Shown: positions 6,549 through 22,069, counted from the first letter of the stretch. The stretch: 32,000 nucleotides of DNA from Candidatus Nanobsidianus stetteri (GCA_000387965.1 APJZ01000001.1:120001-152000), one strand, 5' to 3'. Translations and numbers: made by a program. Notes: generated by a model from the sequence alone, not told the origin.

Positions 6549-8221
6549 TGCCTGAACAAATACAAGAAACAAAACAAGAATATATAATAAAAAGGGAAAA
6601 TGCAAAAGTAATAACTAATGATATAACTGCATCATTTGATGAGGCATTAAATAAATATGAACATCTTAGAGATTATGTTAATGAAATATCATTAAAAATT
6701 GGGCCTCCCGAATGGATGACTTCTCTAGATTTTTCTTTAAGATCTAGAACTGAATTTAATATATTATATCCTGTTGGAGATCCCATATTTATTCATATAT
6801 ATAAATTACCATCCGGAGAAGCATTATATAATGTAATAGAACCCGAATTAAATGATGAAGAAAAGAAAAAATTAGATCGAATACAAACAAAAATTGTTAA
6901 ATATGCAATAGAAGATATTAACTTTAATAATGTTGAAGAAGTAAGAAGATATATAATCGATCTATTCAATAAGGTTATTGATTTTAAAAAGAAATTATTT
7001 TCTGATAAGGTATATATAAAAAATCAAGAAGAATATGATAAATTGTTATATTTCTTAATTAGAGAAAGATTTGGTTATGGATATTTAGAACCATTTTTAA
7101 GAGATCCATATTTAGAGGACGTACATATATTGGGTTTAGGTCCTATTTATGTTGTACATAAAATATTTGGAATGCTTAAAACAAATAGAGTATTTAAAAA
7201 TGAGGAAGATTTAAATAAATATATAATTAAATATTCACAAATAGTTGATAGACCAGCATCAGAAACAAGACCAATAGTTGATGCAATATTACCAGACGGA
7301 TCAAGAGTTAATTTTATATATGGTAAAGATATATCTTTACATGGATCTTCATTTACAATAAGAAAATTCTCTGCAAAACCATTAAGTATAACGCAATTAA
7401 TTTCTTTTGGTACAATTTCTCCCGAAGAGGCTGCTTATTTATGGTTGGCAATTGAAAATGGAATGAATATAGTAGTATCTGGAGAAACAGCATCAGGAAA
7501 AACTACATTATTAAATGCATTGACTACCTTTATTAAACCTGATGCAAAGGTTTATTCTGTAGAAGATACACCTGAATTAAATATACCACATAATATATGG
7601 CAAAGATTGGTTACAAGGGAAGTTGGAAAAAGTGCGGATGTATCTATGTATGATCTATTAAGAGCAGCATTAAGATCCAGACCAAATTATATATTAATAG
7701 GTGAGATAAGAGGTAAAGAAGGATATGTAGCATTCCAGGCAATGCAAACAGGTCATCCAGTTATGACAACATTCCACTCAGGTAATATAACTCAATTAAT
7801 AGAAAGATTGACTGGAGATCCAATAAATATACCAATTACATTTATAGATAACTTAAATATTGCTGTATTTACAACATCAGTAACGGTAAAGGGGAGATAT
7901 GAAAGAAGAATAACAAATATATACGAAATAGAAAAGTATATTGCTGAATTAAAGAAAGTTGCTGTTAGAAATGTATTTACATGGAATTCTGTACAAGATA
8001 AACATATGTTTATTGGAAGATATAATAGTTATATATTAGAAAAGAAAATTGCGCCATTAATGAAAATTGATGATAAAAGAAAAATATACCAAATATTAGA
8101 TTATAGGGCTAAAATATTAAAAAAGATGGTTGAATATCAAATATTTGATTTCTTTGAAGTATGGGAAATATTGAAAAATTTCTACATAAATGGACCTTCA
8201 TCATTACCATTTTCAGTATAA
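6548..8221 (+). CDS. arlI: archaellum motor ATPase ArlI (FlaI), type II/IV secretion ATPase family
   Basis: 557 aa. Walker A SGETASGKTTLLNAL, Asp/Walker B region RSRPNYILIGEIRGKEG, His box QTGHPVMTTFH. Confidence 0.92.
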   Translation: MPEQIQETKQEYIIKRENAKVITNDITASFDEALNKYEHLRDYVNEISLKIGPPEWMTSLDFSLRSRTEFNILYPVGDPIFIHIYKLPSGEALYNVIEPELNDEEKKKLDRIQTKIVKYAIEDINFNNVEEVRRYIIDLFNKVIDFKKKLFSDKVYIKNQEEYDKLLYFLIRERFGYGYLEPFLRDPYLEDVHILGLGPIYVVHKIFGMLKTNRVFKNEEDLNKYIIKYSQIVDRPASETRPIVDAILPDGSRVNFIYGKDISLHGSSFTIRKFSAKPLSITQLISFGTISPEEAAYLWLAIENGMNIVVSGETASGKTTLLNALTTFIKPDAKVYSVEDTPELNIPHNIWQRLVTREVGKSADVSMYDLLRAALRSRPNYILIGEIRGKEGYVAFQAMQTGHPVMTTFHSGNITQLIERLTGDPINIPITFIDNLNIAVFTTSVTVKGRYERRITNIYEIEKYIAELKKVAVRNVFTWNSVQDKHMFIGRYNSYILEKKIAPLMKIDDKRKIYQILDYRAKILKKMVEYQIFDFFEVWEILKNFYINGPSSLPFSV

Positions 8222-8296
8222 TTAATAAATTTTTCTTGAAATTAATTTAATTATGGATCGGTATTAAAAAGGCCAAAATTTTTGTTATAAATAATT

Positions 8297-9571
8297 ATGA
8301 TGGATAAAAATATTATAAAATTACTTTTATGGAAAAAGCCAGCAATAGAAGTATTAAATGAAGAAAAAGCAAATAAAATAAATAATTTCAGACATTATAT
8401 AGGATATGAAATATCTGGATATGTGCATTTAGGTACTGCAGTTGTATCAGGATATAAATTAATTGATTTTATGAATTTTGCAGAAACAGAAGTATTTTTA
8501 GCGGATTGGCATTCAGTAATAAATAATAAATTGGGAGGGGATCCTGAAGTAATTAAAAGAATTGCAAGAGGATATTTTACTGAAGCAATGAAACAAACAA
8601 TAAAATCTTTGGGTGGAGATCCTGATAAAGTAAAATTTGTTTTAGCATCAGAAATATATAATAATGATTATTGGGCAGAAGTAATTAAAATTGGAAAAAA
8701 TACTACATTAAATAGATTACTAAGATCTATTACAATTATGGGAAGAAAATATGAAGAATCAATGCCATCTGCAAATTTAATATATCCATTAATGCAGGCT
8801 GCAGATATAATATTTCAAAAGATAAATATCGCACATGCTGGAATTGATCAAAGAAAGGCACATGTAATTACAATTGAATATGCTGATAAAATAAATTATG
8901 ATTTAATTGCAGTACATCATCAATTAATAACAAACCTACAATTACCATATGAAACATTCCAAAAATTAAAATCTGGAAATATAAAAGAAGCTAAGGAAGA
9001 ATTATCTGAACTAAAAATGTCTAAATCTATACCAGGTTCTGCAATATTTGTTCATGATAGTCCCTCAGAAATTATTGATAAAATAAATAAAGCATTCTGT
9101 CCTCAAAAAGAATTAGAATTCAATCCAATATGGGAAATAGTTGAATATTTAATATTTAGGGACCAGGAAGGTTATGGGATAATAAAATATTTATATGAAA
9201 ATAATTTATATAAAATAGAAAATATTGAAAAAATAAATTATGATATATATGAAGAATTAAAGAATAATAATAAGATAAATTGGAATGAAATATATAAAAT
9301 AATTGATAAAGAATCCAATGAATTATATAAATATTCATATAAAGATATTGAATTTGAGATAATTAATGAAAAAACTGGAGAGAGAAAAGTATATAATAAT
9401 TTATGGGATTTAAGAAAAGATTGGATTGAAGGAAAAATACATCCACTAGATTTTAAGAAAGCTGTTGGAAAATGGTTAGCAAATAAATTAGAACCTGTAT
9501 ATAAATATTTTACTGAGGGATCTGGTAAGAAATATAAAGAAGAATTAGATTCTGTTAAGATCACTAGGTAG
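8297..9571 (+). CDS. tyrS: tyrosyl-tRNA synthetase (archaeal type, with a low-complexity insertion)
   Basis: 424 aa. HIGH-like YVHLGT, LADWHS, YPLMQAADI, GIDQRKAH, KMSKS, DSPSEIIDKINKAFCP, and C-terminal GKIHPLDFKKAVGKWLANKLEPV, which aligns by eye with M. jannaschii TyrRS. Confidence 0.85.
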   Translation: MMDKNIIKLLLWKKPAIEVLNEEKANKINNFRHYIGYEISGYVHLGTAVVSGYKLIDFMNFAETEVFLADWHSVINNKLGGDPEVIKRIARGYFTEAMKQTIKSLGGDPDKVKFVLASEIYNNDYWAEVIKIGKNTTLNRLLRSITIMGRKYEESMPSANLIYPLMQAADIIFQKINIAHAGIDQRKAHVITIEYADKINYDLIAVHHQLITNLQLPYETFQKLKSGNIKEAKEELSELKMSKSIPGSAIFVHDSPSEIIDKINKAFCPQKELEFNPIWEIVEYLIFRDQEGYGIIKYLYENNLYKIENIEKINYDIYEELKNNNKINWNEIYKIIDKESNELYKYSYKDIEFEIINEKTGERKVYNNLWDLRKDWIEGKIHPLDFKKAVGKWLANKLEPVYKYFTEGSGKKYKEELDSVKITR

Positions 9572-10159: not shown

Positions 10160-10188
10160 TAATAACTATTTTATAAAATATTAAAAAA

Positions 10189-10237
10189 TCTGAGCTCAAG
10201 ACCCTCATCATTTATCAGCCGATGAGTTTTTCTTCAT
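10189..10237 (-). ncRNA. box C/D sRNA (2'-O-methylation guide), double-guide architecture
   Basis: Minus-strand read: AUGAAGA (C) - AAAACUCAUCGG (12 nt) - CUGA (D') - UAA - AUGAUGA (C') - GGGUCUUGAGCU (12 nt) - CAGA (D), followed by U6. Same box variants and the identical central CUGAUAAAUGAUGA as the sRNA at 2233-2281. Confidence 0.75.
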
Positions 10238-10637
10238 TATAAAGATATTATAAAAAATTTATTTTAAAAATGATCGTTTATTTTCCAAATCAATATAATT
10301 ATATTTATTTAGATAACATTTTCTTAATTTTATTCCTAAAGAATAAATATAACAATGTGAGGATAATTCTTTTTATAATATTAGTATCTAATACTGTTAG
10401 ATATTGAAGGTATTTTTATAGATATTTTATAATTTGTATTATAAAAAGTATTTATTTCCATTTTTAATCCCATTAAATATTCTAATGCTATTTTACATCT
10501 AACCTTTAATAAATAAATATAAAATCTTTCAAATTTTTTCAAGACTATCCTTTATAAAGCTAATACTTACACTTTGATCATGTCTTCTGTAATATGACGA
10601 TAACGATTGATCTTTAATTATTTTGACTCTATGATTA

Positions 10638-10650
10638 TAGATTTTTTAAA
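10638..10650 (+). terminator. cassette-boundary T-tract (TAGATTTTTTA), copy 0, with no ORF upstream
   Basis: Same motif as the T-tracts that follow the three paralogous genes. Archaeal terminators are oligo-T runs. Confidence 0.35.
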
Positions 10651-10654
10651 AATG

Positions 10655-10710
10655 TTTATTTATTACAATTACATAATTATGGTATTAAGATAAATTTATA
10701 AATTTTCTTA
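10655..10710 (+). promoter_or_regulatory. conserved upstream element, copy 1 (imperfect palindrome plus TATA-like box)
   Basis: TTTATTTATTACAATTACATAATTATGGTATTAAGATAAATTTATAAATTTTCTTA. The AAATTTATAAATT box lies ~33 nt before ATG 10724. Near-identical to the copies at 11536 and 12266. Confidence 0.6.
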
Positions 10711-10723
10711 TGTGATACATAGT

Positions 10724-11395
10724 ATGGACAGCCCACAACTAGATGAAAGATCCAATAAGTTAATAGATATGTTAATAGAAAAGACTAACAATTTGCTAAT
10801 AAAAAGTTATGCGGGGGATCTAAAGGAGCTGTTAGATAAACTTTATAGAAATGTACAAAAAGAGGGAGGAATATCTCATCCAAAAGAATACCAGGGAACA
10901 ATAGAGCTTATACAAGGTAAATGTAAGATTACAATAAAAGTTTCTAGTGAAAACATGACATCTGAGTGTTATTCGAAATTAGAACCTTTACCCGATAAAA
11001 TGGAATGTACCAGTCATGATACTATAGTTGGTTCTATATATAGGCAATTTAATGTTTCTAATTCCGTTCATTTAATGGAAAATATAAAAGACATAATTAC
11101 AAATATGAGTAAAATTATATATTCGAGAGTATCTACGAATATAGATAACCAAAATATATCCATAAGTATAGCTTTTGTTAGGTATTTAACAACAAACAAA
11201 GAGAATTCAAAAGCATGTGAATTACGTAAATACAATAATATAGTCACCTTTGATGATGGTGAATTCGCTTTTACTATATTTCACCTTGATGACCTTGATA
11301 AAAGAATTGAAGAGAATAATTTATATTCATATAAAAAACATGCACGTACATATTTCGGAGATAATATTTCATATAATAGAGGATGTTATATTTAG
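10724..11395 (+). CDS. hypothetical protein, tandem paralog 1 (most divergent)
   Basis: The track ORF starts at GTG 10712. ATG 10724 sits at the position homologous to the starts of paralogs 2 and 3 relative to the shared TATA-like box. Shares LPDKMEC, QNISISI and DDGEFAFTIF blocks with paralog 3. No TM segment or signal peptide. Confidence 0.6.
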   Translation: MDSPQLDERSNKLIDMLIEKTNNLLIKSYAGDLKELLDKLYRNVQKEGGISHPKEYQGTIELIQGKCKITIKVSSENMTSECYSKLEPLPDKMECTSHDTIVGSIYRQFNVSNSVHLMENIKDIITNMSKIIYSRVSTNIDNQNISISIAFVRYLTTNKENSKACELRKYNNIVTFDDGEFAFTIFHLDDLDKRIEENNLYSYKKHARTYFGDNISYNRGCYI

Positions 11396-11460
11396 AAAAT
11401 ATAATGTATTGAATATAAGAATTACATAGCCACCTTTAAGTTTAAATTTTTTAGCTTTGT

Positions 11461-11477
11461 TAGATTTTTTATTTCAA
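11461..11477 (+). terminator. cassette-boundary T-tract TAGATTTTTTATTTCAA, copy 1
   Basis: Oligo-T run downstream of paralog 1, repeated after each paralog. Confidence 0.45.
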
Positions 11478-11535
11478 AAATGATTACATTATTCTATAAT
11501 TATTTGATTGCTAATTTTTATCTTTGATTTTTAAT

Positions 11536-11590
11536 TTTATTTATTACAATTACATAACTATGGCATAATATAAATTTACAAATTTTCTAT
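11536..11590 (+). promoter_or_regulatory. conserved upstream element, copy 2
   Basis: TTTATTTATTACAATTACATAACTATGGCATAATATAAATTTACAAATTTTCTAT. The TATA-like box lies 34 nt before ATG 11605. Confidence 0.6.
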
Positions 11591-11604
11591 ATAAATATAA
11601 TATT

Positions 11605-12222
11605 ATGTACAATCGGCAATCATATAAAAGTTATGAAAAAACATATGATTTATTAGAAAAAAATAAGAAATTGGAACTAGAATATCCTATAAGAGAAATA
11701 AGGGGCTTATTTTACTTGATATCTAAACATATACAAGAAAATGCTAATTTACCCAAAATAGAAAGACTTACTGCAGTAATAGATTTATATTGCAATATGC
11801 ACAATGAACCTACGTCGTGTATATATGATACTAAAATGGACATCTATAATGATAAATATAAACTAATTGGCTGTTCTTCAAAAAAACAAGATGAATCTTA
11901 TGAAATTAAATGCACTAATTATAATGATATATCATTTATTGATTTATCTAATTCTCCTCAAATCACTTATTCTCTAGAAGGTATAAAATATTTAATTCTA
12001 AGTGCATATAATACATTGTATCCAGGAATACTAATAGATATGAGTGAGCGAGGTAATCAATATATAGATATAATCACAAAAGTTTCTATGAATTTAAACA
12101 ATTCAACAAACGAGAATCCAAAAATGTTTGTAGATAATAATTTATTTATTTTTAACAGTGATGGATTTATTATTGAGATATTTTGGGAATTTTATCACAG
12201 TCCTAAGCTATATCTATTTTAG
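11605..12222 (+). CDS. hypothetical protein, tandem paralog 2
   Basis: 205 aa. Aligns by eye with paralog 3 over the full length (MY...LLEK...EY.I.E...KIE...LYC-x-C.YD.K..IYN...C.NY.D.S...SN...Y.EG...AYPG.L...DNN...DGF.I.I.W). Confidence 0.65.
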   Translation: MYNRQSYKSYEKTYDLLEKNKKLELEYPIREIRGLFYLISKHIQENANLPKIERLTAVIDLYCNMHNEPTSCIYDTKMDIYNDKYKLIGCSSKKQDESYEIKCTNYNDISFIDLSNSPQITYSLEGIKYLILSAYNTLYPGILIDMSERGNQYIDIITKVSMNLNNSTNENPKMFVDNNLFIFNSDGFIIEIFWEFYHSPKLYLF

Positions 12223-12228
12223 CCTTTA

Positions 12229-12245
12229 TAGATTTTTTATTTCAA
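12229..12245 (+). terminator. cassette-boundary T-tract TAGATTTTTTATTTCAA, copy 2
   Basis: Identical 17-mer to 11461-11477, immediately after the paralog 2 stop. Confidence 0.45.
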
Positions 12246-12265
12246 TTTATCTTTGACTTTATAAT

Positions 12266-12320
12266 TTTGTTTATTACAATTGCATAACTAGGATATAAGA
12301 CAAATTTACAAATTTTTTAT
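12266..12320 (+). promoter_or_regulatory. conserved upstream element, copy 3
   Basis: TTTGTTTATTACAATTGCATAACTAGGATATAAGACAAATTTACAAATTTTTTAT. Hand count gives 8 mismatches in 55 nt against copy 2. Confidence 0.6.
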
Positions 12321-12333
12321 ATAGTATAATATT

Positions 12334-12927
12334 ATGTATGATCAACCAGCAGATAAAAGTTCTGAAGGAAAATCCGAGTTATTAGAAAAAATTGATAAAT
12401 GGTTACTAGAATATGATATAAAAGAACTAAAGAACTCATTAAATGAAATAGTTGAAAATATAAAAGAAAGGGTTGGTATATCTAAAATAGAAGGATCATA
12501 CACATCCATAAGTTTATATTGCTGTAACAGAGATAATGGACGTATGTGGTGTAAATATGATAGTAAAATAGAAATTTATAATAAAGGCAAAAAAATTAGT
12601 TGTGAACCAAACATACCATTCTTACCCGATAAACTTGAATGTATTAATTATAGGGATAAGTCATTATTTGAGATATCCAATTTACGTGACAAACTTTCTT
12701 ACATAGAAGGTAAAATTCTAGATATACATAAAACAGCATATCCAGGAGTACTTATGAATTTAGGTAATCAATCGATAACTATATCCATAGATACTTACAT
12801 AGATTCCAAACAAGAGACAAAAAAAGCGAATTCAAAAATAATTAAAGATAATAATTCACTTATTTATGAAAAAGATGGTTTTTATATTAGAATATATTGG
12901 CACACTGACGAACCATGTAAGTCCTAA
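12334..12927 (+). CDS. hypothetical protein, tandem paralog 3
   Basis: 197 aa, homologous to paralogs 1 and 2 (see above). Conserved Cys positions: LYCC-x8-C, ISC, LEC. Confidence 0.65.
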   Translation: MYDQPADKSSEGKSELLEKIDKWLLEYDIKELKNSLNEIVENIKERVGISKIEGSYTSISLYCCNRDNGRMWCKYDSKIEIYNKGKKISCEPNIPFLPDKLECINYRDKSLFEISNLRDKLSYIEGKILDIHKTAYPGVLMNLGNQSITISIDTYIDSKQETKKANSKIIKDNNSLIYEKDGFYIRIYWHTDEPCKS

Positions 12928-12944
12928 CTATTTTTAACTTTATT

Positions 12945-12960
12945 TAGATTTTTATTTCAA
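12945..12960 (+). terminator. cassette-boundary T-tract TAGATTTTTATTTCAA, copy 3
   Basis: Same motif (one T shorter) downstream of paralog 3. Confidence 0.45.
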
Positions 12961-13068
12961 AAATTATTTCTAGAAAATTATAAAAATTCTTAATTGATAA
13001 TTTTGTAAAATATTTAATAAAATGTTTATGAAATTAATTGATAACAATACATTATATAATTCTTATAT

Positions 13069-14397
13069 TCAATACATTATATTTTCTAACTCTTTTAAAT
13101 CAAATAAATATGTTTTATCTTCTTTAATTTTTTCTTTAAAACTTTTTGCAAATATTATATAATATTTATTTTTTATATCTAAATTTATATATTCAGATTT
13201 TTCCTTTAAATTTTCCAATATTTCTTTTGTATTTATATTATCATAATACTTACATTCTATTAAATATATATCTTTTGTATTTTCATTATATGCAACTAGA
13301 TCTATTTCTTTATCTTTATACCACCATTTTCCAATTTTTGTAAATTTAAATAATTTGCTTTTTATTAAAAATTGTTTTGCTATATCTTCAAAGACATATC
13401 CTAAATATCTATTATAATCTCTTTTAATATCATTAATATCAAATATACCTTCTTCTATAGAACTTAAATTTGGATAAATATATCTAAACCAAAATCTAAT
13501 AAAGTTATCATTTATATAATATCTACCTGCTCTAGAATTTATTTTTTGATCTATTGGAACAATTCTTTTTATTAATTCTACTTCAATTAAATTTTTTAAA
13601 TATGGACTTAAATCTGTTCTCTCAACCTTTATATAATCTTTAATTTCTTTTATAGTATTTTTACCAAATGATATAGCTTCTAAAATTGATTTATATAAAC
13701 TCGGACTTTCAAATTCATATCTCATCAAAAAATCTACTTCATCTAATATAAATGTTTTCTCTTTTAATTCTTTATCTAACCAATCCCAAAAATTTCCATT
13801 TATTTTTGATAAATAATAAGGATTTCCATCAGCAAATCCATATATTTCTATTAATTCTAAAATATTTTTATCTGGGAAAAATTCTCTTAAATCAAAGAAG
13901 GATATTGGTTTTAATTTATATGATAATGTTTTCCTACCATATAAAGGACTTTTATAACCTAAAACTTTTGATTTTATCATTGATATTGAAGATCCAATTA
14001 TTATTAATTTTATTCTAGAATTTTTTAATATATTATCAACGATATTTTGGAAAATAATTAATATATTTTTATCTTCTTTTATTAAATTTTGAAATTCATC
14101 TATAATTATAACATCTACTTTATCTTTTAAAAAATCAAACAATACTTCCCAATCTTTTTTATATTTATTTAATTCTGGAAAATAATTTAAGCATAAATTA
14201 TAAAATCTATCCAAATTATTCTTTTCTAAAGCTAAATAATATATTCTCTTCATTTTTTCTGTGGCTTTTAATACTAATTCTGTTTTTCCAATTCTCCTTC
14301 TACCATAAATTATTATGAACTCAAATTTGTCACTATTTAAATATTTATTAAGCATGGTTAACTCTTCTTTTCTATTTTTGAAATTTTGTATAATCAT
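13069..14397 (-). CDS. archaeal AAA+ ATPase (Arch_ATPase/ATPase_2 type) with wHTH and a DUF234-type C-terminal PD-(D/E)xK-like domain
   Basis: 442 aa. Walker A YGRRRIGKTEL, Walker B VIIIDEFQ, PLYGR block, wHTH-like KNTIKEIKDYIKVERTDLSPYLKNLIEVELIKR, RYYINDNFIRFWFRYI (the DUF234 hallmark). C-terminal EIDLVAYNENTKDIYLIECKY gives D-x14-E-x-K. Confidence 0.8.
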   Translation of the reverse strand: MIIQNFKNRKEELTMLNKYLNSDKFEFIIIYGRRRIGKTELVLKATEKMKRIYYLALEKNNLDRFYNLCLNYFPELNKYKKDWEVLFDFLKDKVDVIIIDEFQNLIKEDKNILIIFQNIVDNILKNSRIKLIIIGSSISMIKSKVLGYKSPLYGRKTLSYKLKPISFFDLREFFPDKNILELIEIYGFADGNPYYLSKINGNFWDWLDKELKEKTFILDEVDFLMRYEFESPSLYKSILEAISFGKNTIKEIKDYIKVERTDLSPYLKNLIEVELIKRIVPIDQKINSRAGRYYINDNFIRFWFRYIYPNLSSIEEGIFDINDIKRDYNRYLGYVFEDIAKQFLIKSKLFKFTKIGKWWYKDKEIDLVAYNENTKDIYLIECKYYDNINTKEILENLKEKSEYINLDIKNKYYIIFAKSFKEKIKEDKTYLFDLKELENIMY

Positions 14398-14618
14398 AAT
14401 TATACTAATTGTAATTATACATATATAAAGTTTATTATCATTTAACCTTCTTTGTATCTAAGAATAGAAACTTAATTTAAAGATCGTATACTTAAAAGAA
14501 AACTACAATCCAAAAATTACAGAATGAAAATAATTAAATAAAATTAATATAATGCTCCTATTATTTCATACTAAAAGTTAAGGAAAAAATTCATAAATGA
14601 TTTATAAAACATAATATT

Positions 14619-17600
14619 ATGCCCTCTACTAATAATTCTCTAAATCAGCTTGATATCGACGACTTATTAATATGTATTAGAAATGGAGTTCTTCAAGCAC
14701 GTACGGAAGAAGATTTAAGAATTAGAGTATCAAATTGTATTGAAGAAAAAATATTAAAACCATTAAAGGATTTAGGAGAAATAGATATTTCTGAAGGTAA
14801 ATATGAATATACTTTAGCTTCTGGTAAGAGAGTTGATGCTTTATATGGGCATGTTATTATTGAATACAAAGCTCCTGGTAAATTATCAAGAGATTCTGAT
14901 ATTCAAAAAGTAAAGGAACAAGTTATTAAATATATAATCACCGAGGCTGGCGATAAAAGTAATTATGATAAATTTTTAGGTATAATTATTAGCGATAAAA
15001 TTGCTTTTGTTAGATACAATAAAAGAGAGGATAAATGGATATTAAGAGGACCTTATGAAATTAGAAGAGAATCTATTATAAAATTAATAGAAGCTTTAAG
15101 AGGTTTAAGAAGAAAAATTTTAAGTTCTGAAGAGCTTACTAAAGATTTTGGTATGAATTCTCAAACATCTAAAAGGATAATAAGAATACTTTATAAAAAG
15201 TTGTTAAATACAAAAAGTGAAAAAACAAAAATATTATTTGAAGATTGGATGAGGTTATTTAAACAAGCTACAGGTTATGATCCTGATAAATTTAAAGAAT
15301 TAAAAGAATTGGCAGAAGACTACGGATTTGAAAAATCTAATATTAATTATGATATTCTAATTTTTGCAATACATACATATTATGCATTAATAATGAAATT
15401 AATTGCTGCCGAAATAGCTTATCTATATGGAAGTGGTAAATTTTATAAATCATATATTGTGGAACTTGATAATGCTTATACATCTAAAGGTATTGAAGGT
15501 TTAAAAAGTATATTAAAGGAATTAGAAAGTGGAGGTATATTTAAAAAGTTATTGGGTATTGAAAACTTTTTAGAAGGGGATTATTTTTCTTGGTATGTTG
15601 AGGAAATAGATCAAGAATTAGGAGATGCTATTGCTGAAATCGCAAGAAGGCTTTCTGATTATGAAATAGCAACTCCACAATTAGAACCTGAATTTGCTAG
15701 AGATTTATTAAAAGATTTATATCAAAATCTTGTTCCAAGAGATATTAGGCATAGTTTGGGAGAATACTACACACCTGATTGGTTAGCAGAATTAATACTT
15801 AATAAAGTTGGATTACGTTATAAAAATTTAGAAAATATGGGAAAAGAAGATCCTTTAAAACCATTAGAAATTAGAGTTTTAGATCCTGCATGCGGATCAG
15901 GTACTTTTCTCATACTTTATATTAGTAGATTAATAAGATATGCTAATAAACATTACTTAACAGATACATTAGCTAAATATATACTTGAAAATGTTGTTGG
16001 TTATGATTTAAATCCATTGGCAGTCTTAACCGCAAGAACAAATTATTTATTAGCCATTGCAGATCTATTAAAACAGAGTAGCCTAGGAAGTATTGAAATT
16101 CCAATTTACTTAGCAGATTCTATAATGATTGAAACAAAAGCAGAAATTACTGAAAGATATTATATATTAAGAACTGCAGTTGGTGAATTTAAGATACCAG
16201 CTAATATTGCACAAGATATTAATCTTTTAAGAAAAATATTAGATGAAATGAAAATGTGTTTAGAAAATGGCTATACACCTAAAGAATTTGAATTTAGAAT
16301 TTCACCATATAATTTAAATTCTGGAGAAAAGAAAAGTTTAATCGATCTTTATAGAAAATTACTTGATCTTAGACTACAAGGAAAAGATGACGTATGGATA
16401 GCTATAATTAGAAATGCATTTGCTCCAATATTAAATGGTAAATTTGATTATGTAATCGGTAATCCACCATGGATAAATTGGGAGAGTCTACCTGAACAAT
16501 ATAGAGAATCAAGTAAAGAACTTTGGAAAAAATATGGATTATTAGTTATCAAAGGAAAAACTGGATTAGGTAAAGTTAAGAAAGATTTATCTATGTTATT
16601 TTTAGCAAGATGTTTTGATTTATATTTAAAAGTAGGTGGAAAATTAGGGTTTGTAATAACATTTACTGTATTTAAAACACAAGCAGGTGCTGGTTTTAGA
16701 AATTTCTTAGCTACAAAAACAAAAATACATGCTATCCATGATTTAGTAACATTGGCACCATTCGAAGGTGCAACAAATAGAACGGGAATTATTATTGTTG
16801 AAAAAGTTTGCGAATTAGATAATATGAATGATAATGAATGTACAATTATTAAAGAAATAAGAAAAGAAAATATGAATGGTATCAAACATGTTGTATGGAA
16901 TGGAAAGAAAATAGACCCAGATACATCCTTAAAAGATGTTCGCAAAATAACAAAACGTTATAAAATAGTGATGGTACCATTAATCCCTAATGATCCTTCA
17001 TCACCATGGATGCAAGTTAAAGCAAATATTATAAATGCTATTAGAAAGGTAATAAGTGGAAACCAATATTATGAAGCACATGAGGGTGTTTTAACTGCCT
17101 TTAATCAAGTTTATTTCATCAAAGTGGTTGATAAGACTCCTAATGGGATGTTATCTATAGAAAATTCGCCCGAGAGCGGACAAAAGAAAAAAGTCAATGA
17201 AACTATAAAAGACATAAACATCGAACCAGACCTAGTTTATCCATTAATTAGAGGTAGAGATGTAAAGAAATGGTATGTTGATTTCAAAGATAGATTTATT
17301 ATTGTACCACATGACCCAAAAACAGCAAAACCTATTTTGGAGAAAGATATGAAAATTAAATGGCCTCTTACATATAATTATTTACTTAATTATAAGAATG
17401 AATTGGAAAAAAGATCAATACATAAATTATGGGGTAAAGGAAATCCATTTTATTCTATATATGATATAGGTACATATACTTTTGCCCCATATAAAGTTCT
17501 ATGGGGGGCAATATCTGGTGCTATTACTGGTAAAGCTTTAAGTTTTGCCTGTGCAGTTGCTGAACCTGTTAATGAAAAACCAATGATACCCGATCATTCT

Positions 17601-17984
17601 GTGATATTAATACCTAATAAAACTGCAGATGAAGCATATTATATTGCAGGTATTTTAAACTCTATCATAATACGCTCAATTATATCATCTTATACCTATG
17701 AATTAGGACAATACACCCACATTATAGATATATTTAACATACCTAAATTCGACCCCAATAATAATTTACATAAGAAAATTGCTGAATTATCTAAAAAAGC
17801 TCATGAATTAGCAAAATGTATATATTCCAATAATAAACCTGATTATTGTAAAAATATTAATGCAAAAGAAGAACTTAAAAAAGTTGAAGATGAAATTGAT
17901 TTAGCAGTTGCTGAATTGTATGGAATTACTAAAGAAGAATTAGAAGGATTTAAAGAATTAATGAATATACTATCTGGAAAATAA
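14619..17984 (+). CDS. single-chain type IIG/IIL restriction-modification enzyme (MmeI/PglX-like): N-terminal PD-ExK nuclease-like domain, gamma-class N6-adenine DNA methyltransferase, C-terminal TaqI_C-like target recognition domain
   Basis: 1121 aa. N-terminus has GKRVDALYGHVIIEYKAPGKL (D-x8-E-x-K). It also has GEYYTP, motif I VLDPACGSGTFL and motif IV DYVIGNPPWINWESL. The TRD-like region has LVYPLIRGRDVKKWYV and FACAVAEP...ILNS. Confidence 0.82.
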   Translation: MPSTNNSLNQLDIDDLLICIRNGVLQARTEEDLRIRVSNCIEEKILKPLKDLGEIDISEGKYEYTLASGKRVDALYGHVIIEYKAPGKLSRDSDIQKVKEQVIKYIITEAGDKSNYDKFLGIIISDKIAFVRYNKREDKWILRGPYEIRRESIIKLIEALRGLRRKILSSEELTKDFGMNSQTSKRIIRILYKKLLNTKSEKTKILFEDWMRLFKQATGYDPDKFKELKELAEDYGFEKSNINYDILIFAIHTYYALIMKLIAAEIAYLYGSGKFYKSYIVELDNAYTSKGIEGLKSILKELESGGIFKKLLGIENFLEGDYFSWYVEEIDQELGDAIAEIARRLSDYEIATPQLEPEFARDLLKDLYQNLVPRDIRHSLGEYYTPDWLAELILNKVGLRYKNLENMGKEDPLKPLEIRVLDPACGSGTFLILYISRLIRYANKHYLTDTLAKYILENVVGYDLNPLAVLTARTNYLLAIADLLKQSSLGSIEIPIYLADSIMIETKAEITERYYILRTAVGEFKIPANIAQDINLLRKILDEMKMCLENGYTPKEFEFRISPYNLNSGEKKSLIDLYRKLLDLRLQGKDDVWIAIIRNAFAPILNGKFDYVIGNPPWINWESLPEQYRESSKELWKKYGLLVIKGKTGLGKVKKDLSMLFLARCFDLYLKVGGKLGFVITFTVFKTQAGAGFRNFLATKTKIHAIHDLVTLAPFEGATNRTGIIIVEKVCELDNMNDNECTIIKEIRKENMNGIKHVVWNGKKIDPDTSLKDVRKITKRYKIVMVPLIPNDPSSPWMQVKANIINAIRKVISGNQYYEAHEGVLTAFNQVYFIKVVDKTPNGMLSIENSPESGQKKKVNETIKDINIEPDLVYPLIRGRDVKKWYVDFKDRFIIVPHDPKTAKPILEKDMKIKWPLTYNYLLNYKNELEKRSIHKLWGKGNPFYSIYDIGTYTFAPYKVLWGAISGAITGKALSFACAVAEPVNEKPMIPDHSVILIPNKTADEAYYIAGILNSIIIRSIISSYTYELGQYTHIIDIFNIPKFDPNNNLHKKIAELSKKAHELAKCIYSNNKPDYCKNINAKEELKKVEDEIDLAVAELYGITKEELEGFKELMNILSGK

Positions 17985-18273
17985 ATTTTATTATTAACTA
18001 TAAAAAATATTAATATTTTCCTCAAGCAACTTTATATCTGCAATTTTATCCCTTTTGCTATATCATCACAATACGTTATTGGAATACCATTATCATACAT
18101 TCATAAAGAAAATTTTATAGTAATATAAAAATTTACCATATCTTTTTATTTTTACTTTGATAACATCTTGTTTTAATAGACATTTATATATTATCTAATT
18201 TGATAAATTAAATTTCTAAAACTTCTTTTAATTTTTCTAAAATTTATTAAAAATAAAAATTTTATTAAAAAAT

Positions 18274-19206
18274 TTAGAAAATTACTTCCTCGCCAGGAAT
18301 TCTTGGGAATAGTTGAACTTCTCTTATATGTTTCTTTCCAGTTAAGAATCTTAATAATCTTTCAACACCAATTCCTCCTCCAGCACTTGGTTTTAACAAT
18401 CCCATTTTAGCAACTTCTAAATATGCTTTATATGATGAATAATCTCTACCTTCTTTTTCTAATTCTTTTATCCTTTCCATAATTCTCTCATATTTATATT
18501 CTCTTTCTCCTCCAGATAAAACTTCTCCATATCCTTCTGGTAATATTAGATCATAGTTTAAGAAATGACCTGGGTGTTCTTCATCTTCTTTATCATAGAA
18601 CTCTCTTTTTATGTCAATAATCCAGAATGGATCTTTCTCTTTTTCACTTAAAGCCTCATCACTACCATATTTTTCTAAAACTTCTGAATATCTATAAACT
18701 TTGAATGGTTTTGAAGGAACTTTTAATTCTCTACCTAGAAGATCTAATTCTTCTTTACATTCTTCTTTAACTTTTTTGATTACATGGATTACTAAATCTT
18801 CTACTAAATCCATTACATCTTTCATCTTTGCATGTGCCATTTCAAAGTCCATCTGTGTAAATTCAAAAGCATGCCTTCCTGTTTTAGCTCTTTCACTTTT
18901 TTCTAATCTAACGTTTGGTGAGAATATAAATATTTTATCTGCCGCTATAAGAGATAGCTGCTTATGTAATATCATACTCTGCGTTATTACTAGTTTTTGC
19001 GAATAATACTCAAATGATGGTGTAAAGACAATACTGGATGCTGGATCTGGTGCCAATGGGTCTGTAAATACTGATGTTACTATTGGCAATAGTTGTACAA
19101 AGCCTCTTCCTACCATAAATGACTGCATTTCCTTCAGTACTACTGTCTGTATTCTTAATATTGGCCCCATTTCTTTTAGGTGAGATATCATTTCTTCTAC
19201 CGCCAT
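18274..19206 (-). CDS. asnA: archaeal asparagine synthetase A-like enzyme (AsnRS catalytic-core paralog lacking the anticodon-binding domain)
   Basis: 310 aa. TDPLAPDP, TQSMILHKQLSL, FIFSPNVRLE, GRHAFEFTQMDFE (class II motif 2), FWIIDIKREFYDKE, YDLILPEGYGEVLSGGEREYKYERI, and LKPSAGGGIGVERLLRFLTGKKHIREVQLFPRIPG (motif 3). There is no N-terminal OB fold. Confidence 0.82.
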   Translation of the reverse strand: MAVEEMISHLKEMGPILRIQTVVLKEMQSFMVGRGFVQLLPIVTSVFTDPLAPDPASSIVFTPSFEYYSQKLVITQSMILHKQLSLIAADKIFIFSPNVRLEKSERAKTGRHAFEFTQMDFEMAHAKMKDVMDLVEDLVIHVIKKVKEECKEELDLLGRELKVPSKPFKVYRYSEVLEKYGSDEALSEKEKDPFWIIDIKREFYDKEDEEHPGHFLNYDLILPEGYGEVLSGGEREYKYERIMERIKELEKEGRDYSSYKAYLEVAKMGLLKPSAGGGIGVERLLRFLTGKKHIREVQLFPRIPGEEVIF

Positions 19207-19410
19207 TTAGTAGTAATAGTCTTTCTGATTCTTAAATTTTTTATAAAATTTTTTAAATAAAATTCAAAAAATTACTTAAATCTGATATAAAAATTGAATA
19301 TTTTTCAAAATTTGATTTATAAATTGATAGGATATTGTATGTATAAATTTCATAAAATTCAAAAATATTTTGAATAAAATACTTAAATTTTTAAAAAATA
19401 TAAATTTCTT

Positions 19411-19872
19411 ATGAAGATAGATGAAAAGGATAAACAATTACTTTCACTTTTACAGAAGAATTGCAAACTTTCATTAAGAGAACTCTCACAAATTACAGAA
19501 ATGAGAGAAACAACAATTTTTACCAGAATAAAGAGATTAGAGAATGCGGGAATAATAAAAGAATATAGAGCAGTTTTAGATCCTAAAGCTATTGGTAAAA
19601 ACGTTTTAGCTTTTGTTTTAATAAAATATGATCCCTCTGCTGGTATTAAACAAAGAGAAGTCGCAGAAAAAATTGCAAACTTACCAGAAATTCAAGAAGT
19701 TCATATAATAGCTGGAGATTGGGATATGATTGCAAAAGTTAGAGAAAAAGATGTTGAAGGTTTAGGAAAAGCTGTTTTAGATAAGATAAGAGAAATTAAA
19801 GGAGTAAAGGAGACAGTATCTTTAATAGTTTTTGAAAGTATAAAAGAAACAACCTTTCTTAATTTAGAATAG
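19411..19872 (+). CDS. lrp: Lrp/AsnC family transcriptional regulator
   Basis: 153 aa. HTH DEKDKQLLSLLQKNCKLSLRELSQITEMRETTIFTRIKRLENAGIIKEYRAVLDPKAIG followed by a RAM/ACT-like domain. Confidence 0.9.
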   Translation: MKIDEKDKQLLSLLQKNCKLSLRELSQITEMRETTIFTRIKRLENAGIIKEYRAVLDPKAIGKNVLAFVLIKYDPSAGIKQREVAEKIANLPEIQEVHIIAGDWDMIAKVREKDVEGLGKAVLDKIREIKGVKETVSLIVFESIKETTFLNLE

Positions 19873-19900
19873 AGATTTGTATTTTTTATAAAAATCTCTA
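19870..19900 (+). terminator. stem-loop with a T6 loop at the lrp stop codon
   Basis: TAGAGATTT (19870-19878) pairs with AAATCTCTA (19892-19900), a perfect 9-bp inverted repeat. The 13-nt loop contains TTTTTT. Confidence 0.45.
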
Positions 19901-19945
19901 AATAAAATTCACAAAAATTTAAAAATTCCAAAATAATAATATATT

Positions 19946-21262
19946 ATGGTAGATATAAAAAACATTTCGGATATAGAAGGACTAACATCTACAGATATAT
20001 TAAATTTATTTAAAGAAACTAGGGCTTTCAAGTTATTATCTACCAAAGCATGGAATAATAGAACAGATATTTTTGTAAATCCAATAGCTTTTTTAAGAGA
20101 TATTTCTAACGATATTACTGACTCGATAAGTTCAGCTTTTGATACAGATTATTGGTTATTAATTCTAGGCGGATCTGGTGCAGGCAAGTCTACATTATCT
20201 ATGGCAATTTACAAGCATATTATGAAAAATCTAGGTTACACTGATGAACAAATTAAAAATTCTATATATTTAGATTTTTGTTATTTACCTTATGATTACT
20301 TAGGTAGAATTATGCTACATGAAAAGCAAATACAAGAAAAAGGTAAATCATTCCCACATCCTATTATATTGGATGACGCTTATCATCTATTTGGTGTATT
20401 TAATAGAGGTATCACTGGTACTACAAGAAAATTACTAGATAAAATATGGGAAATTGGAGAATATCGATTAGCACATATTGTTAATAATCAGTTTTCATTA
20501 CAATTAGCTCAAAGAGCTATAATGAGGATGCATTCACTGATAATTTTATGGAAAGAACCTATCAGTATTGGCAGTAATGAGACACCCAATATGGAAGAAA
20601 CTTACTTAAGCTATGTGAAAAATTTGCTAAATAAAAGTCAAGAGACTAATTCTAATAATAAGGATGTCGATTTCTTGTGGGGTGCATTTTATGGAAAAGA
20701 CAAAGCATATAAAGTTATGGGATATATCACAAAAAACCAGGGAAATATTGGCGAAGTTGATATCTTAGCAAAATTTACGCCTGATTATATTTTTCCAATG
20801 CTATTAACTTTACATGAGATATCCGATCTGAGAAAAGCATATAAAGATATAAAAGATTGTAGTTTATCAATAATAGATTATTATCGTAATGCGGAGAAGC
20901 TTAAAATAAAAGGATCTCATAAATGCTTGTTTTTAAGAATTCTAATCGAACTAAATAAGAATTTTGATAGAATAACTGACAAGGTAGACTCTAAAGGCTT
21001 TTATAAAGTAAACCCACCACTTGATTTTAAAATTCGTAATAAAAAAGATTTCGATGCTTTGCAGGATATTGGAGATATACATCTAGAACCACCTATTAAA
21101 CAAACAAGAAAAATATATAAAGACTCGACATACATAAAAGAAACCTATTCTGAAAGTCCTAAAATTAAGATATATTCTATAAATTCTTATATTTATTATT
21201 TCTTAAAGAATTGTCATGAAACGCTCGAAAAAAGATCACAATTATATGAAAGACTATATTAA
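19946..21262 (+). CDS. orphan P-loop NTPase (unassigned family)
   Basis: 438 aa. Walker A LILGGSGAGKSTLSMAIY, Walker B HPIILDDAYHLFG. The C-terminal ~250 aa have no recognisable motif. Less N/K/I-biased than its neighbours. Confidence 0.6.
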   Translation: MVDIKNISDIEGLTSTDILNLFKETRAFKLLSTKAWNNRTDIFVNPIAFLRDISNDITDSISSAFDTDYWLLILGGSGAGKSTLSMAIYKHIMKNLGYTDEQIKNSIYLDFCYLPYDYLGRIMLHEKQIQEKGKSFPHPIILDDAYHLFGVFNRGITGTTRKLLDKIWEIGEYRLAHIVNNQFSLQLAQRAIMRMHSLIILWKEPISIGSNETPNMEETYLSYVKNLLNKSQETNSNNKDVDFLWGAFYGKDKAYKVMGYITKNQGNIGEVDILAKFTPDYIFPMLLTLHEISDLRKAYKDIKDCSLSIIDYYRNAEKLKIKGSHKCLFLRILIELNKNFDRITDKVDSKGFYKVNPPLDFKIRNKKDFDALQDIGDIHLEPPIKQTRKIYKDSTYIKETYSESPKIKIYSINSYIYYFLKNCHETLEKRSQLYERLY

Positions 21263-21396
21263 TGGTCTCAAAAAATATATCATAACCTAAATTTTTAATT
21301 TTTAACCTTTTAAATTAAATAAATATAAAATTATTTTGAATTTTTCCCTAAATATATGTTATCAAATCTAAAAATTTGGGAGATAAAAAAGAAACC

Positions 21397-21771
21397 TTAA
21401 TATCCAGCTGGAGCATCTGCAGTTCTTGGCATTGCTAATCTCATTAATATTTCTAATATCAATAAGAATGCTCCAATAAATATTATAATTTGCAATACAG
21501 ATCCTAAGGATCTTAAAGTATTAATTGCAACTACTGAATAACTTGAAACCTGTTGTACATACGTTATAGAGTTTTGGAAAGATGTATTAACCGCATTTTG
21601 TATATTTGTTGCATTTGATGGTAATTGGTTATATACTGTTTGGTAGCTATTATATATTAGTGGGTAGAATGACATTCCTGCTACGCTTACTATACCTACA
21701 CCTATCAATACTATTACCGCTGCTACTGTTAACCCCAAAGCAAGACCAATTAGTGCATATGCTACATCCAT
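21397..21771 (-). CDS. hypothetical membrane protein with two terminal hydrophobic helices and a Q/N/S/T-rich middle
   Basis: 124 aa. N-terminal AYALIGLALGLTVAAVIVLIGVGIVSVAG, C-terminal LQIIIFIGAFLLILEILMRL, then a PRTADAPAGY tail. Ala/Gly/Val-rich with visibly higher GC than the flanks. Confidence 0.55.
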   Translation of the reverse strand: MDVAYALIGLALGLTVAAVIVLIGVGIVSVAGMSFYPLIYNSYQTVYNQLPSNATNIQNAVNTSFQNSITYVQQVSSYSVVAINTLRSLGSVLQIIIFIGAFLLILEILMRLAMPRTADAPAGY

Positions 21772-21937
21772 AATATATTAATTGTAATTACTTATATATA
21801 AAATTTATTAATCTTTCTCTTATAATGCCTATTTATAGATAGTTATTATAGTGGGGTATTATAATAGAATCTTATAAAAGCTTGTATATAATATTCACAA
21901 TTATGAACCATGGGTTTTGGAATTTCAAATATATTTT

Positions 21938-21955
21938 GATTAACCATGGTTAATC
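21938..21955. repeat. 18-bp perfect palindrome GATTAACCATGGTTAATC
   Basis: Self-complementary over all 18 positions. It is the central member of three AACCATG(G) sites at 21906, 21942 and 22014. Confidence 0.85.
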
Positions 21956-22046: not shown

Positions 22047-22069
22047 CAGCAAGTATCCCGGTTACTTGA

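Follow-up and report, generated by a model that had tools for sequence, protein, structure and literature searches.

A probable defence hotspot with independent modules and a candidate hypervariable gene array in Candidatus Nanobsidianus stetteri

Candidatus Nanobsidianus stetteri Nst1 is an obligate hot-spring symbiont with a reduced, CRISPR-less genome of roughly 0.6 Mb. Positions 10638–17984 of the 32,000-nucleotide stretch analysed here (the window), part of contig OBNano_10001, hold three small paralogous cassettes, an ATPase gene and a restriction-modification (RM) gene. Do these five genes act together as one defence system, or do they merely share a location? A first-pass annotation of the sequence had offered both alternatives. 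All five genes it described are real and correctly placed, and the block comprises the following features.

10647–10712, 11528–11593 and 12258–12323, plus strand: promoter-like 66-nt repeat upstream of each cassette (67–86% identity)
10724–11395, plus strand: cassette 1, 223 aa from the ATG of the JGI call, or 227 aa from a GTG at 10712; the most divergent copy
11605–12222, plus strand: cassette 2 (Nst1_146), 205 aa
12334–12927, plus strand: cassette 3 (Nst1_147), 197 aa
11448–11485, 12216–12253 and 12931–12968, plus strand: T-rich 38-nt repeat after each cassette
13069–14397, minus strand: AAA+ ATPase (ATPase_2) fused to a DUF234 PD-(D/E)xK domain, 442 aa (Pfam, PADLOC)
14398–14618: divergent spacer of 221 bp, with an ATPase-proximal half to ~14470 and a half proximal to the type IIG gene from ~14521
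14619–17984, plus strand: type IIG RM enzyme, 1121 aa (PADLOC, Pfam, motifs)
17307–17483, plus strand: hypervariable segment of the type IIG target-recognition region, aa ~897–955

Related contigs and loci (~70), mapped by tblastn and blastn, place the block within a flexible, strain-variable region of ~12 kb (window ~10.5–22.6 kb), of which it forms the left two-thirds. The region is bounded by tyrS-orf111-orf73 on one side and orf370-lemA on the other; comparison of related loci shows the conserved left flank stopping at ~10.4–10.6 kb and the conserved right flank restarting at ~22.59 kb (~22591). The rest of the window had been described as core genes, with the asnA/lrp pair flanking the block. 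The description as core genes does not hold: the variable stretch runs to ~22.59 kb, taking in the genes at 19.9–22.6 kb and also asnA-lrp, a module within the flexible region that is carried by L004, L005, L039, L040 and others and is missing in L007, L034 and L053. Outside the block, the relevant features are as follows.

10187–10241, minus strand: candidate C/D-box sRNA in the conserved left flank, outside the variable block
18142–19905, both strands: asnA/lrp module, kept as a block and missing from some strains
18274–19206, minus strand: asnA (NCBIfam asparagine synthetase A, 420.7 bits)
19411–19872, plus strand: lrp
19946–22486: strain-specific genes (438-aa P-loop protein, 124-aa ORF, 138-aa ORF) forming the last part of the flexible region

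The strain-specific genes matched nothing in related loci, whether as nucleotide or as protein sequence, and gave only weak P-loop hits. The C/D sRNA reported as a neighbour of the block is a weak candidate. Its C, D′ and C′ boxes are recognisable (AUGAAGA, 12 nt, CUGA, 3 nt, AUGAUGA, then ~12 nt), but the D box is imperfect and the match to Rfam sR14 is sub-threshold (21.3 bits, E 0.025, against a gathering score of 38). A GC or GC3 shift marking the block was sought and not seen; GC3 is within the window range and composition is native. Neither integrase, transposase nor att-like repeat was found among the called genes, and no tRNA lies within the region.

The 1121-aa protein, earlier described as a nuclease-methyltransferase, matches the PADLOC profile REase_MTase_IIG (PDLC03630) over its full length (1503 bits; residues 2–1120 over model positions 2–1100 of 1100), and its Pfam matches to Eco57I (64 bits) and N6_Mtase (38 bits) both exceed the cut-off. 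An N-terminal nuclease motif, D73-x8-E82-x-K84 (nt 14835–14870), lies on the same polypeptide as a gamma-class N6-adenine methyltransferase with motif I LDPACGSGTF (aa 421–430, nt 15879–15908) and motif IV NPPW (aa 615–618, nt 16461–16472). Each of these motifs is invariant in 120/120 homologues. Divergence among alleles peaks in the putative target-recognition domain (TRD), and the hypervariable part, aa 800–1050, is as expected of a TRD. Within it, aa ~897–955 share 22–34% identity in many alleles that are otherwise 70–84% identical overall, and window positions 17308–17481 are unalignable at the nucleotide level by blastn. A TaqI_C match at aa 875–1036 is weak (19.9 bits, under the 26.5 cut-off). 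The gene as a whole has a dN/dS of 0.15–0.25. Judging from its family, this polypeptide alone would methylate adenines at its site, using the NPPW methylase and C-terminal TRD, while its PD-ExK nuclease would cut incoming DNA without that methylation. Across the population, this putative TRD is exchanged or diversified, and a type I RM system or toxin-antitoxin (TA) genes can stand in place of the whole gene.

The divergently transcribed ATPase also matches its earlier description as an AAA+ ATPase with a DUF234-type C-terminus. PF01637 (ATPase_2, 97.7 bits) and PF03008 (DUF234, 87.7 bits) both exceed their cut-offs, and Walker A GRRRIGKT (nt 14281–14304), Walker B IIIDEFQ and the D-x14-E-x-K motif (D366-x14-E381-C-K383, nt 13249–13302) are conserved in 121 sequences. 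DUF234 has been classed as a PD-(D/E)XK family (PMC3424549). The protein further matches PADLOC PDC-S27 (PDLC04984; E 1.2e-38, residues 8–415 over model positions 6–445 of 474), an unvalidated single-gene candidate defence system that is abundant in Archaea (PMC12988326) and is a candidate by guilt by association only. Its domains suggest that it uses NTP to sense or remodel nucleic acid and couples this to cleavage by the PD-ExK domain. With a dN/dS of 0.15 the gene is under purifying selection where intact, yet strains can do without it, as its deletion in many of them shows. The ATPase and the type IIG enzyme are thus of catalogued kinds, and the cassettes are the sole novel element of the block.

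Whether these components belong together can be read from their distribution among strains. An intact ATPase sits beside the type IIG gene in the window, L003, L005, L046 and L061, and an ATPase with an internal deletion (window 13293–14365) sits beside an intact type IIG gene in L034–L037. The type IIG gene occurs without an adjacent ATPase in L047, L048, L050, L052, L058 and L059, although many related contigs are short metagenome fragments and some of the absences are called from just 0.4–1.8 kb of upstream sequence. Conversely, L007 carries an intact ATPase and VapBC instead of the type IIG gene, and in L030 the latter is replaced by type I RM genes hsdR/S/M. Across strains the cargo of this position includes type IIG RM, type I RM, VapBC, PDC-S27, PDC-S70-like and other genes. 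Cassette arrays lie directly upstream of the type IIG gene with no ATPase (L050, L059), after lrp (L040, L051, L004) or inside the spacer (L053). Wherever their junction with the ATPase, or with what is left of it, can be seen, the two lie tail-to-tail. Arrays are retained in strains that have deleted or lack the ATPase, and they are always found among RM, TA and PDC genes. Beyond the lineage, ATPase homologues (31–71% identity) and type IIG homologues (60–69% identity) of other archaea are never adjacent, and the flanks of 22 loci with more distant, non-Nanopusillaceae ATPase homologues held no type IIG gene or cassette. Within the lineage the components combine independently of one another, and outside it they are never found together.

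These presence/absence patterns largely refute the second alternative of the first-pass annotation, in which the five genes together make up a single composite defence system with the ATPase-nuclease as sensor/effector, the methyltransferase as self-marking component and the cassettes as specificity or decoy modules. Such a system would account for the co-location of all five genes in the window, L003 and L064, and for the tail-to-tail arrangement of array and ATPase. However, synteny of the components is not conserved; every pairwise combination is also found broken, each component occurs without the others, and arrays hold anywhere between 1 and 6 cassettes. The cassettes match no PADLOC model, and both enzymes match entries that are self-sufficient or single-gene; a match to a known system type was among the outcomes that the first-pass annotation had itself listed as speaking against its proposal. 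We therefore regard the composite system as highly improbable. Nothing in the data favours the cassettes as specificity or decoy modules of the ATPase, and arrays persist without it. The block is instead probably part of a defence hotspot with three functionally independent modules, in line with the other alternative of that annotation: the same position holds different cargo in other strains.

The ATPase and type IIG genes do diverge from a 221-bp spacer, as first described, and a narrower partnership between these two deserves separate consideration. In L012, L042, L053 and L064, insertions of 2–3.5 kb lie exactly between window positions ~14470 and ~14521, and breakpoints are consistent at this fixed junction (blastn, >15 loci); insertion contents were examined for one locus, L064. 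The spacer thus consists of two halves that can be separated at the insertion site. The ATPase is nevertheless the commonest upstream neighbour of the type IIG gene in the lineage, which may reflect a facultative functional link.

Homologues from Thermoproteota bear on this point. Each type IIG homologue there (60–69% identity; Acidilobus, Ignisphaera, Caldivirga) is followed, 4–10 bp downstream, by a 470–475-aa BrxL_N + BrxL_ATPase gene that scores 358 bits against PADLOC BrxL, and none has a DUF234 neighbour. The constant presence of a BrxL-like AAA+ ATPase indicates that the family is able to work with an ATPase partner. Thermoproteota may thus have a conserved two-gene module of type IIG enzyme and short BrxL, of whose type IIG component the nanoarchaeal enzyme would be a stripped-down derivative. 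The nanoarchaeal enzymes lack both the BrxL-like partner and a 111-aa C-terminal extension. Could ATPase-DUF234 have taken the place of the BrxL-like ATPase in a nanoarchaeal two-gene system, with the cassettes as bystanders? The head-to-head pairing of the type IIG gene with the AAA+ ATPase at ~10 distinct loci is what this would predict. Nevertheless, intact type IIG genes with kept catalytic motifs sit beside a deleted or absent ATPase in at least as many strains as beside an intact one, L007 retains the ATPase alone, insertions part the two promoter halves, and the association is missing from the 22 non-Nanopusillaceae loci. The two proteins also show no co-variation: the ATPase is 94–98% constant and present across type IIG allele classes of 66% to 90% identity. 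We consider the two-gene system improbable, and independent modules remain our preferred reading.

The cassettes require a different explanation. They are true paralogues, as first proposed: cassettes 2 and 3 share 37% identity (E 2e-30) and cassettes 1 and 3 share 28% (E 2e-11), while cassettes 1 and 2 are linked via cassette 3 only. Units are repeated whole: in each, an ORF of ~200 aa follows a promoter-like repeat and is itself followed by a T-rich tail, probably a terminator region. The same upstream region precedes the cassettes of L002. The repeats are paralogue repeats of whole units (60–86% identity), and no reverse transcriptase of a diversity-generating retroelement was found among the called genes. 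Across strains we identified 30 distinct intact members at the locus, with ORFs of 150–250 aa and a median identity of 26%. A search among 1.84 billion proteins resolved 66 clusters at 50% identity, and all named members belong to Nanobsidianus or Nanopusillus, making this a Nanopusillaceae-only family. Two cysteines, Cys90 and Cys103 in cassette 3 numbering, are invariant and several motifs are kept over 54 sequences of ~24% mean identity, including an N-terminal M-x-x-QQ-x-YKSSEKI followed by a variable body. AF2 gives a confident and consistent fold, with a long N-terminal helix and a beta-rich domain in the cassette 3 model (pLDDT 83.8). Profile searches, structure searches and sequence inspection returned no known domain, fold, structural neighbour or signal peptide. 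A trace of the immunity domain WapI (E 0.059) was dismissed as noise.

Cassette dN/dS values span 0.62–1.16, compared with 0.04–0.17 for the flanking conserved genes and 0.04–0.25 for the ATPase, type IIG gene and flanks together, although at a GC3 of 10–20% dS may be too low and dN/dS correspondingly inflated for the deeper cassette pairs. Such values point to relaxed or diversifying selection. If the cassettes were decaying, functionless duplicates evolving neutrally, a dN/dS near 1 in the deeper pairs and a protein without a known domain would be expected. Yet the intact ORFs, the invariant cysteines and kept motifs, the confident fold and the conserved promoter-like repeat all argue for function, and the closest orthologous pair, cassette 3 and its L002 ortholog (74–75% protein identity), has a dN/dS of 0.62, not 1. 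The genome is, moreover, strongly reduced, with the second-lowest paralogue density in Archaea (PMC3655853). We find neutral decay quite improbable.

A role towards the crenarchaeal host has more to commend it. Here the cassettes would be symbiosis factors acting on or in the host, for instance moved across the cell-cell contact, and the locus would be flexible in a general sense, not a defence island. The restriction of the family to obligate ectosymbionts, its dN/dS of ~0.6–1.2, and the conserved N-terminal motif ahead of a variable body are consistent with this, as is the presence of non-defence cargo elsewhere in the region: asnA/lrp, a GT2 gene in L003 and a probable chorismate mutase/prephenate dehydrogenase gene in L030. 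Jarett et al. reported that hypothetical proteins in these organisms carry a raised density of non-synonymous SNPs (PMC6142677), which points the same way. Against it, inspection of the sequences revealed neither a signal peptide nor a transmembrane segment, and none of the known secretion motifs; moreover, the arrays always sit with RM, TA and PDC genes. We judge this role rather unlikely.

We tentatively propose that the cassette array is a new hypervariable gene system of Nanopusillaceae ectosymbionts, made up of recombining self-contained units with an unseen fold and two invariant cysteines, under positive selection for a changing partner. The array grows and shrinks, probably because its conserved 5′ ends allow unequal recombination, and our best guess is that its products work in the cytoplasm as binding proteins that follow a changing partner of viral, mobile-element or host origin. 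If so, the array could recognise viral or mobile-element proteins and provide a CRISPR-less hyperthermophile with a repertoire for immunity or anti-defence at the protein level; alternatively, its partners would be host factors where the two symbionts meet.

Among known systems, BREX resembles this locus in that the methylase core is weakly similar to PglX and homologues in Thermoproteota come paired with a BrxL-like ATPase. Nevertheless, the window has no brxA/B/C, pglZ or brxL; the genes called within 10 kb on each side of the methylase include neither brxC/pglZ nor brxA/B/L, and no NCBIfam BREX PglX model scores above 58.8 bits, where the cut-offs are 400–900. The type IIG enzyme has an invariant nuclease motif, whereas PglX is not known to carry one.

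The closer likeness is to type IIG enzymes (MmeI/Eco57I-like, PADLOC REase_MTase_IIG, COG1002 'YeeA'), which share the single polypeptide with an N-terminal D-x8-ExK nuclease and gamma-class methylase, followed here by a variable C-terminal region that is the putative TRD. Specificity in this family is changed easily, and the TRD-focused allelic diversification seen here fits. The window enzyme differs in having no close solved structure (best PDB sequence match BrxX/PglX, E 4e-4) and in lacking the extension and BrxL-like partner of its closest relatives outside the lineage. The ATPase likewise shares with PDC-S27 and COG1672 'Arch_ATPase + DUF234' the ATPase_2 + DUF234 architecture, Walker A/B and PD-ExK motifs, single-gene organisation, archaeal abundance and defence-gene surroundings; the class is candidate defence, and sister strains demonstrably manage without this gene.

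The cassettes recall the tandem orphan immunity-gene arrays of polymorphic toxin systems and the variable surface or effector families of symbionts, with diverged small paralogues, variable copy number and conserved 5′ ends favouring recombination. They have no adjacent toxin gene, known immunity domain or export signal, and the likeness is organisational only. The locus as a whole differs from other defence islands in its fully native composition, its housekeeping-type asnA/lrp, its lack of integrase, transposase or att-like repeat among the called genes, and its setting in an obligate symbiont of ~0.6 Mb, but it shares with the defence islands and integration hotspots of bacteria and archaea a fixed position between conserved genes where the defence cargo differs between strains.

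Our ORF map reproduced the layout that the first-pass annotation had described, with three cassettes, an ATPase gene, a 221-bp spacer (14398-14618), a type IIG restriction-modification (RM) gene and the asnA/lrp pair. The cassettes (cas1, cas2 and cas3) are tandem small paralogous ORFs and not CRISPR cas genes. The window's source, Nst1, is the Obsidian Pool nanoarchaeon, an obligate ectosymbiont with a genome of ~0.6 Mb. Its region of interest contains the following genes:

10712/10724-11395, + strand, first cassette
11605-12222, + strand, second cassette
12334-12927, + strand, third cassette
13069-14397, - strand, 442-aa ATPase gene
14619-17984, + strand, IIG gene (1121 aa)
18274-19206, - strand, asnA
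19411-19872, + strand, lrp

CRISPR-Cas is absent from Nst1, which is very unusual among hyperthermophiles, and paralogues are almost absent as well, their density being the second-lowest in Archaea (PMC3655853).

All window proteins were mapped by tblastn and blastn to 75 related loci (L-numbers below), which came from exact-protein look-ups and from scans of genomes (query: the ATPase) and metagenomes (query: the IIG). Identity to the window is 88–97% in the flanks, tyrS-orf111-orf73 and orf370-lemA, and the variable stretch between them runs from ~10.4–10.6 kb to ~22.59 kb. The stable left flank of this hotspot is formed by an archaellum cluster (FlaC/D/E-like, KaiC-like ATPase and FlaI-type T2SSE ATPase; 4727-8221) directly left of tyrS; the cluster is 92–95% nucleotide-conserved among related strains. 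The asnA-lrp segment (18142-19905) is a discrete block, missing in L007, L034 and L053, and window positions 19.9–22.6 kb have no counterpart among the related loci examined. Just right of lrp lies a 438-aa P-loop protein (GGSGAGKST; 19946-21262, +) with weak matches only (ABC_tran, nSTAND3, MADS mad3/mad8, E ~1e-3); because related loci hold no counterpart, we regard it as strain-specific cargo of the flexible region.

A second small variable family comprises paralogues, 26–37% identical, of the window's 138-aa ORF (22070-22486, -). Examples lie at L004 4742-5212, L005 ~4198-4521 and L030 2036-2530, the last of which looks by eye to be multi-membrane-spanning. In many related strains these paralogues sit directly downstream of the IIG, where the window has asnA. 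A GT2 glycosyltransferase gene (PF00535; L003 4739-5668, +), absent from the window, lies between orf73 and the single cassette of Nanopusillus sp. DS.bin.8.

The compositional shift that had been proposed as a check did not appear: G+C is ~24% across the whole window, and neither GC nor GC3 carries an island signature. An Rfam scan at the gathering score returned three tRNAs and nothing else. Because composition bears no sign of import and no integrase or transposase was found among the called genes, we infer that turnover of the hotspot probably proceeds by homologous recombination between strains.

The 442-aa protein matches ATPase_2 (97.7 bits) and DUF234 (87.7 bits) in Pfam, DUF234 being included among the PD-(D/E)XK families (PMC3424549). 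Its Walker A (GRRRIGKT), Walker B (IIIDEFQ) and D366-x14-E381-C-K383 motifs are conserved across 121 ATPase sequences. It also matches PADLOC PDC-S27 (E 1.2e-38), a single-gene “putative defence candidate” derived from guilt-by-embedding, unvalidated and abundant in Archaea (PMC12988326).

PADLOC model PDLC03630 (REase_MTase_IIG) covers the 1121-aa protein end to end with 1503 bits, and Eco57I and N6_Mtase Pfam domains are present. When the protein is aligned with 119 homologues, the nuclease residues (D73, E82, K84) do not vary, and neither does motif I (LDPACGSGTF) or motif IV (NPPW). BREX PglX models scored far under their cut-offs on this protein, and no BREX genes were found near it among the called genes. 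Because of the full-length profile match, the invariant motifs, the poor PglX scores and the lack of BREX neighbours, we identify the protein from its sequence as a canonical self-sufficient type IIG RM enzyme, with activity and recognition site predicted from the family. Its alleles are 66–90% identical to the window protein, while the adjacent asnA is 86–94% identical. Allele divergence is highest at residues 800–1050, with identity dropping to 22–34% at 901–950, and window positions 17308-17481, inside the gene, are unalignable between alleles at the nucleotide level. The L068 allele is a clear mosaic, 93% and then 65% identical. This pattern is the one expected of specificity-domain exchange. 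We also rejected a recent transfer of the IIG from the high-GC host lineage, given its native composition.

The first-pass annotation had left two readings of the block, a defence island of independent modules or one multi-component system, and the states of the locus across strains separate them. The ATPase is intact and head-to-head with the IIG in the window, L003, L005/L045, L046 and L061, and the pair is split by insertions of 2–3.5 kb in L012, L042, L053 and L064, the L064 insert encoding one protein with a UPF0175 domain and another resembling PDC-S70. In L034–L037 the ATPase carries an internal deletion (window 13293-14365) and adjoins an intact IIG; L047, L048, L052 and L058 have an IIG without ATPase sequence upstream, and in L050 and L059 cassettes stand directly upstream of the IIG in the ATPase’s stead. 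In L007 the ATPase is intact, and VapBC and other genes replace the IIG, asnA and lrp. In L030 (N. stetteri AB-777_F03) the ATPase is a remnant, the IIG is reduced to a 47-aa remnant, and its place is taken by a complete type I system (2857-9487: HsdM 518 aa, HsdS 430 aa and HsdR 1154 aa, alongside an HExxH protein of 116 aa). Within the six-copy cassette array of this locus, the sequence motifs of a 362-aa gene (12360-13448, -) suggest a fusion of chorismate mutase and prephenate dehydrogenase; for an organism whose biosynthesis is so limited, a metabolic gene in the variable region is unexpected.

Module boundaries are fixed: the IIG module always starts at window 14521-14527 or 14566, and the ATPase module always ends at 14445-14519. 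The “shared” spacer therefore consists of two halves, each with a promoter, that meet at a recombination and insertion junction. Loci carry one cassette (L002, L003), two (L059), three (window, L007, L034, L040) or six (L030). Arrays also occur within the spacer (L053) or after lrp (L004 9849-10615; L051 9602-11594; L040 7004-9019), and L004 and L051 have an ATPase remnant right of lrp too, so that the same modules recur in permuted order. A circular element or tandem duplication was considered for this order in L004, L040 and L051 and rejected; because L004 has no second IIG copy past its ATPase remnant, we treat it as a simple rearrangement. Outside the lineage, no IIG or cassette flanks the ATPase homologues (31–71% identity) in 22 loci, and no DUF234 gene neighbours the IIG homologues of Acidilobus, Ignisphaera and Caldivirga.

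The original observation was largely correct and its interpretation half right. Independent assortment across related loci supports modules gathered in a flexible hotspot and disfavours a single system, since the ATPase is often lost beside the IIG and cassettes persist without it. The ATPase is conserved where present, often lost, and assorts independently of IIG allele class; as a natural experiment, these populations give evidence that strains can dispense with PDC-S27 and that it is independent of the adjoining RM enzyme. Both enzymes match existing catalogue types, an outcome the first-pass annotation had itself named as counting against its proposal, and neither is out of the ordinary for its kind.

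The cassettes are a different matter. Cas2 and cas3 share 37% identity (E 2e-30) and cas1 and cas3 28% (E 2e-11); two such proteins are named Nst1_146 and Nst1_147 in Candidatus Nanobsidianus stetteri. A 66-nt repeat precedes and a 38-nt T-rich repeat follows every ORF, and therefore the duplicated element is the whole gene unit of ~715–880 bp. The family is tiny: its clusters numbered 8 in a word-indexed search of 5.8 billion proteins and 66, at 50% identity, in an exhaustive HMM search covering 1.84 billion representatives. Named members are all from Nanobsidianus stetteri or Nanopusillus sp., and nearly all members lie on short hot-spring contigs. Neither the individual cassettes nor 54 members of their family gave more than noise in Pfam, NCBIfam, PADLOC and PHROGs, and the profile against PDB sequences likewise gave only coiled-coil noise (E at least 0.04). 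Our literature search turned up nothing published on the locus, nor on hypervariable genes in Nanopusillus. Just two cysteines are invariant across the 54 members (mean column identity ~24%), along with a recurring N-terminal M-x-x-QQ-x-YKSSEKI and a few short motifs; sequence inspection showed no signal peptide or membrane segment.

The AlphaFold2 model is confident (pLDDT 83.8, pTM 0.80), with helices at residues 7–47 and 118–135 and about ten strands. Foldseek with full-length and trimmed models found no genuine structural neighbour among PDB entries (best TM-score 0.38) and no match under E 1e-3 among BFVD viral structures. The PDB hits, to LolA/LolB/LprG/DUF1329 and MHC/EPCR platform folds, were too poor to accept as fold assignments (TM 0.15–0.38, rmsd 8–18 Å). 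Some members (cassette-family proteins P0004 and P0006–P0008; L007 13130-13858) have a duplicated N-terminal module, seen as two successive M-x-x-Q...SSEKISELIEK helix starts, which is consistent with unequal recombination between adjacent units via their conserved 5′ ends.

Substitution rates (dN/dS) set the cassettes apart from their neighbours:

tyrS, orf111, lrp and asnA (flanks), 0.04–0.17
ATPase, 0.15
IIG, 0.15–0.25
cas3 versus its L002 ortholog, 0.62
deeper cassette pairs, ~1.15

With GC3 at 10–20%, synonymous distances are probably too low at depth, and we therefore take the close cas3/L002 pair, whose dS of 0.22 is near its neighbours’ values, as the reliable one. Cassettes evolve ~ten times faster than their neighbours at non-synonymous sites. 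Such change could reflect neutral decay, but this is unlikely because 30 cassette ORFs are intact, the cysteines and promoter-like repeats are conserved, and the genome is under strong reduction. The cassettes form a genuine family of intact, folded and fast-evolving proteins that only these symbionts have. As one of the few lineage-specific expansions in a genome of this kind, and with its fast non-synonymous change, it is a good candidate virus- or host-interaction factor; we favour, with low confidence, diversifying binding proteins directed at a variable viral, mobile-element or host partner.

These results locate a flexible defence hotspot in the CRISPR-less Nst1, where turnover in natural populations occurs via RM allele swapping, replacement and decay, and so inform how ~0.6-Mb symbionts defend themselves. 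Worth pursuing are the hypervariable cassette array and a pairing found in relatives of the IIG. Its closest extra-lineage relatives, 60–69% identical, belong to Thermoproteota from the same springs; the Acidilobus, Ignisphaera and Caldivirga homologues are ~1220 aa long with a 111-aa C-terminal extension. A gene of 470–475 aa with BrxL_N and BrxL_ATPase domains (358 bits to PADLOC BrxL) follows the Thermoproteota homologues 4–10 bp downstream on the same strand (L077 5030-10151; L078 8001-13077; L079; L080; L081 8001-13088). The IIG and short BrxL look like a conserved two-gene module, and none of the four papers that our search found to name both BrxL and type IIG describes this pair. Their coupling leaves some room for a weak version of the idea that the nanoarchaeal IIG has an ATPase partner. 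Whereas the Thermoproteota enzymes have a C-terminal tail and a BrxL partner, the nanoarchaeal IIG has lost both.
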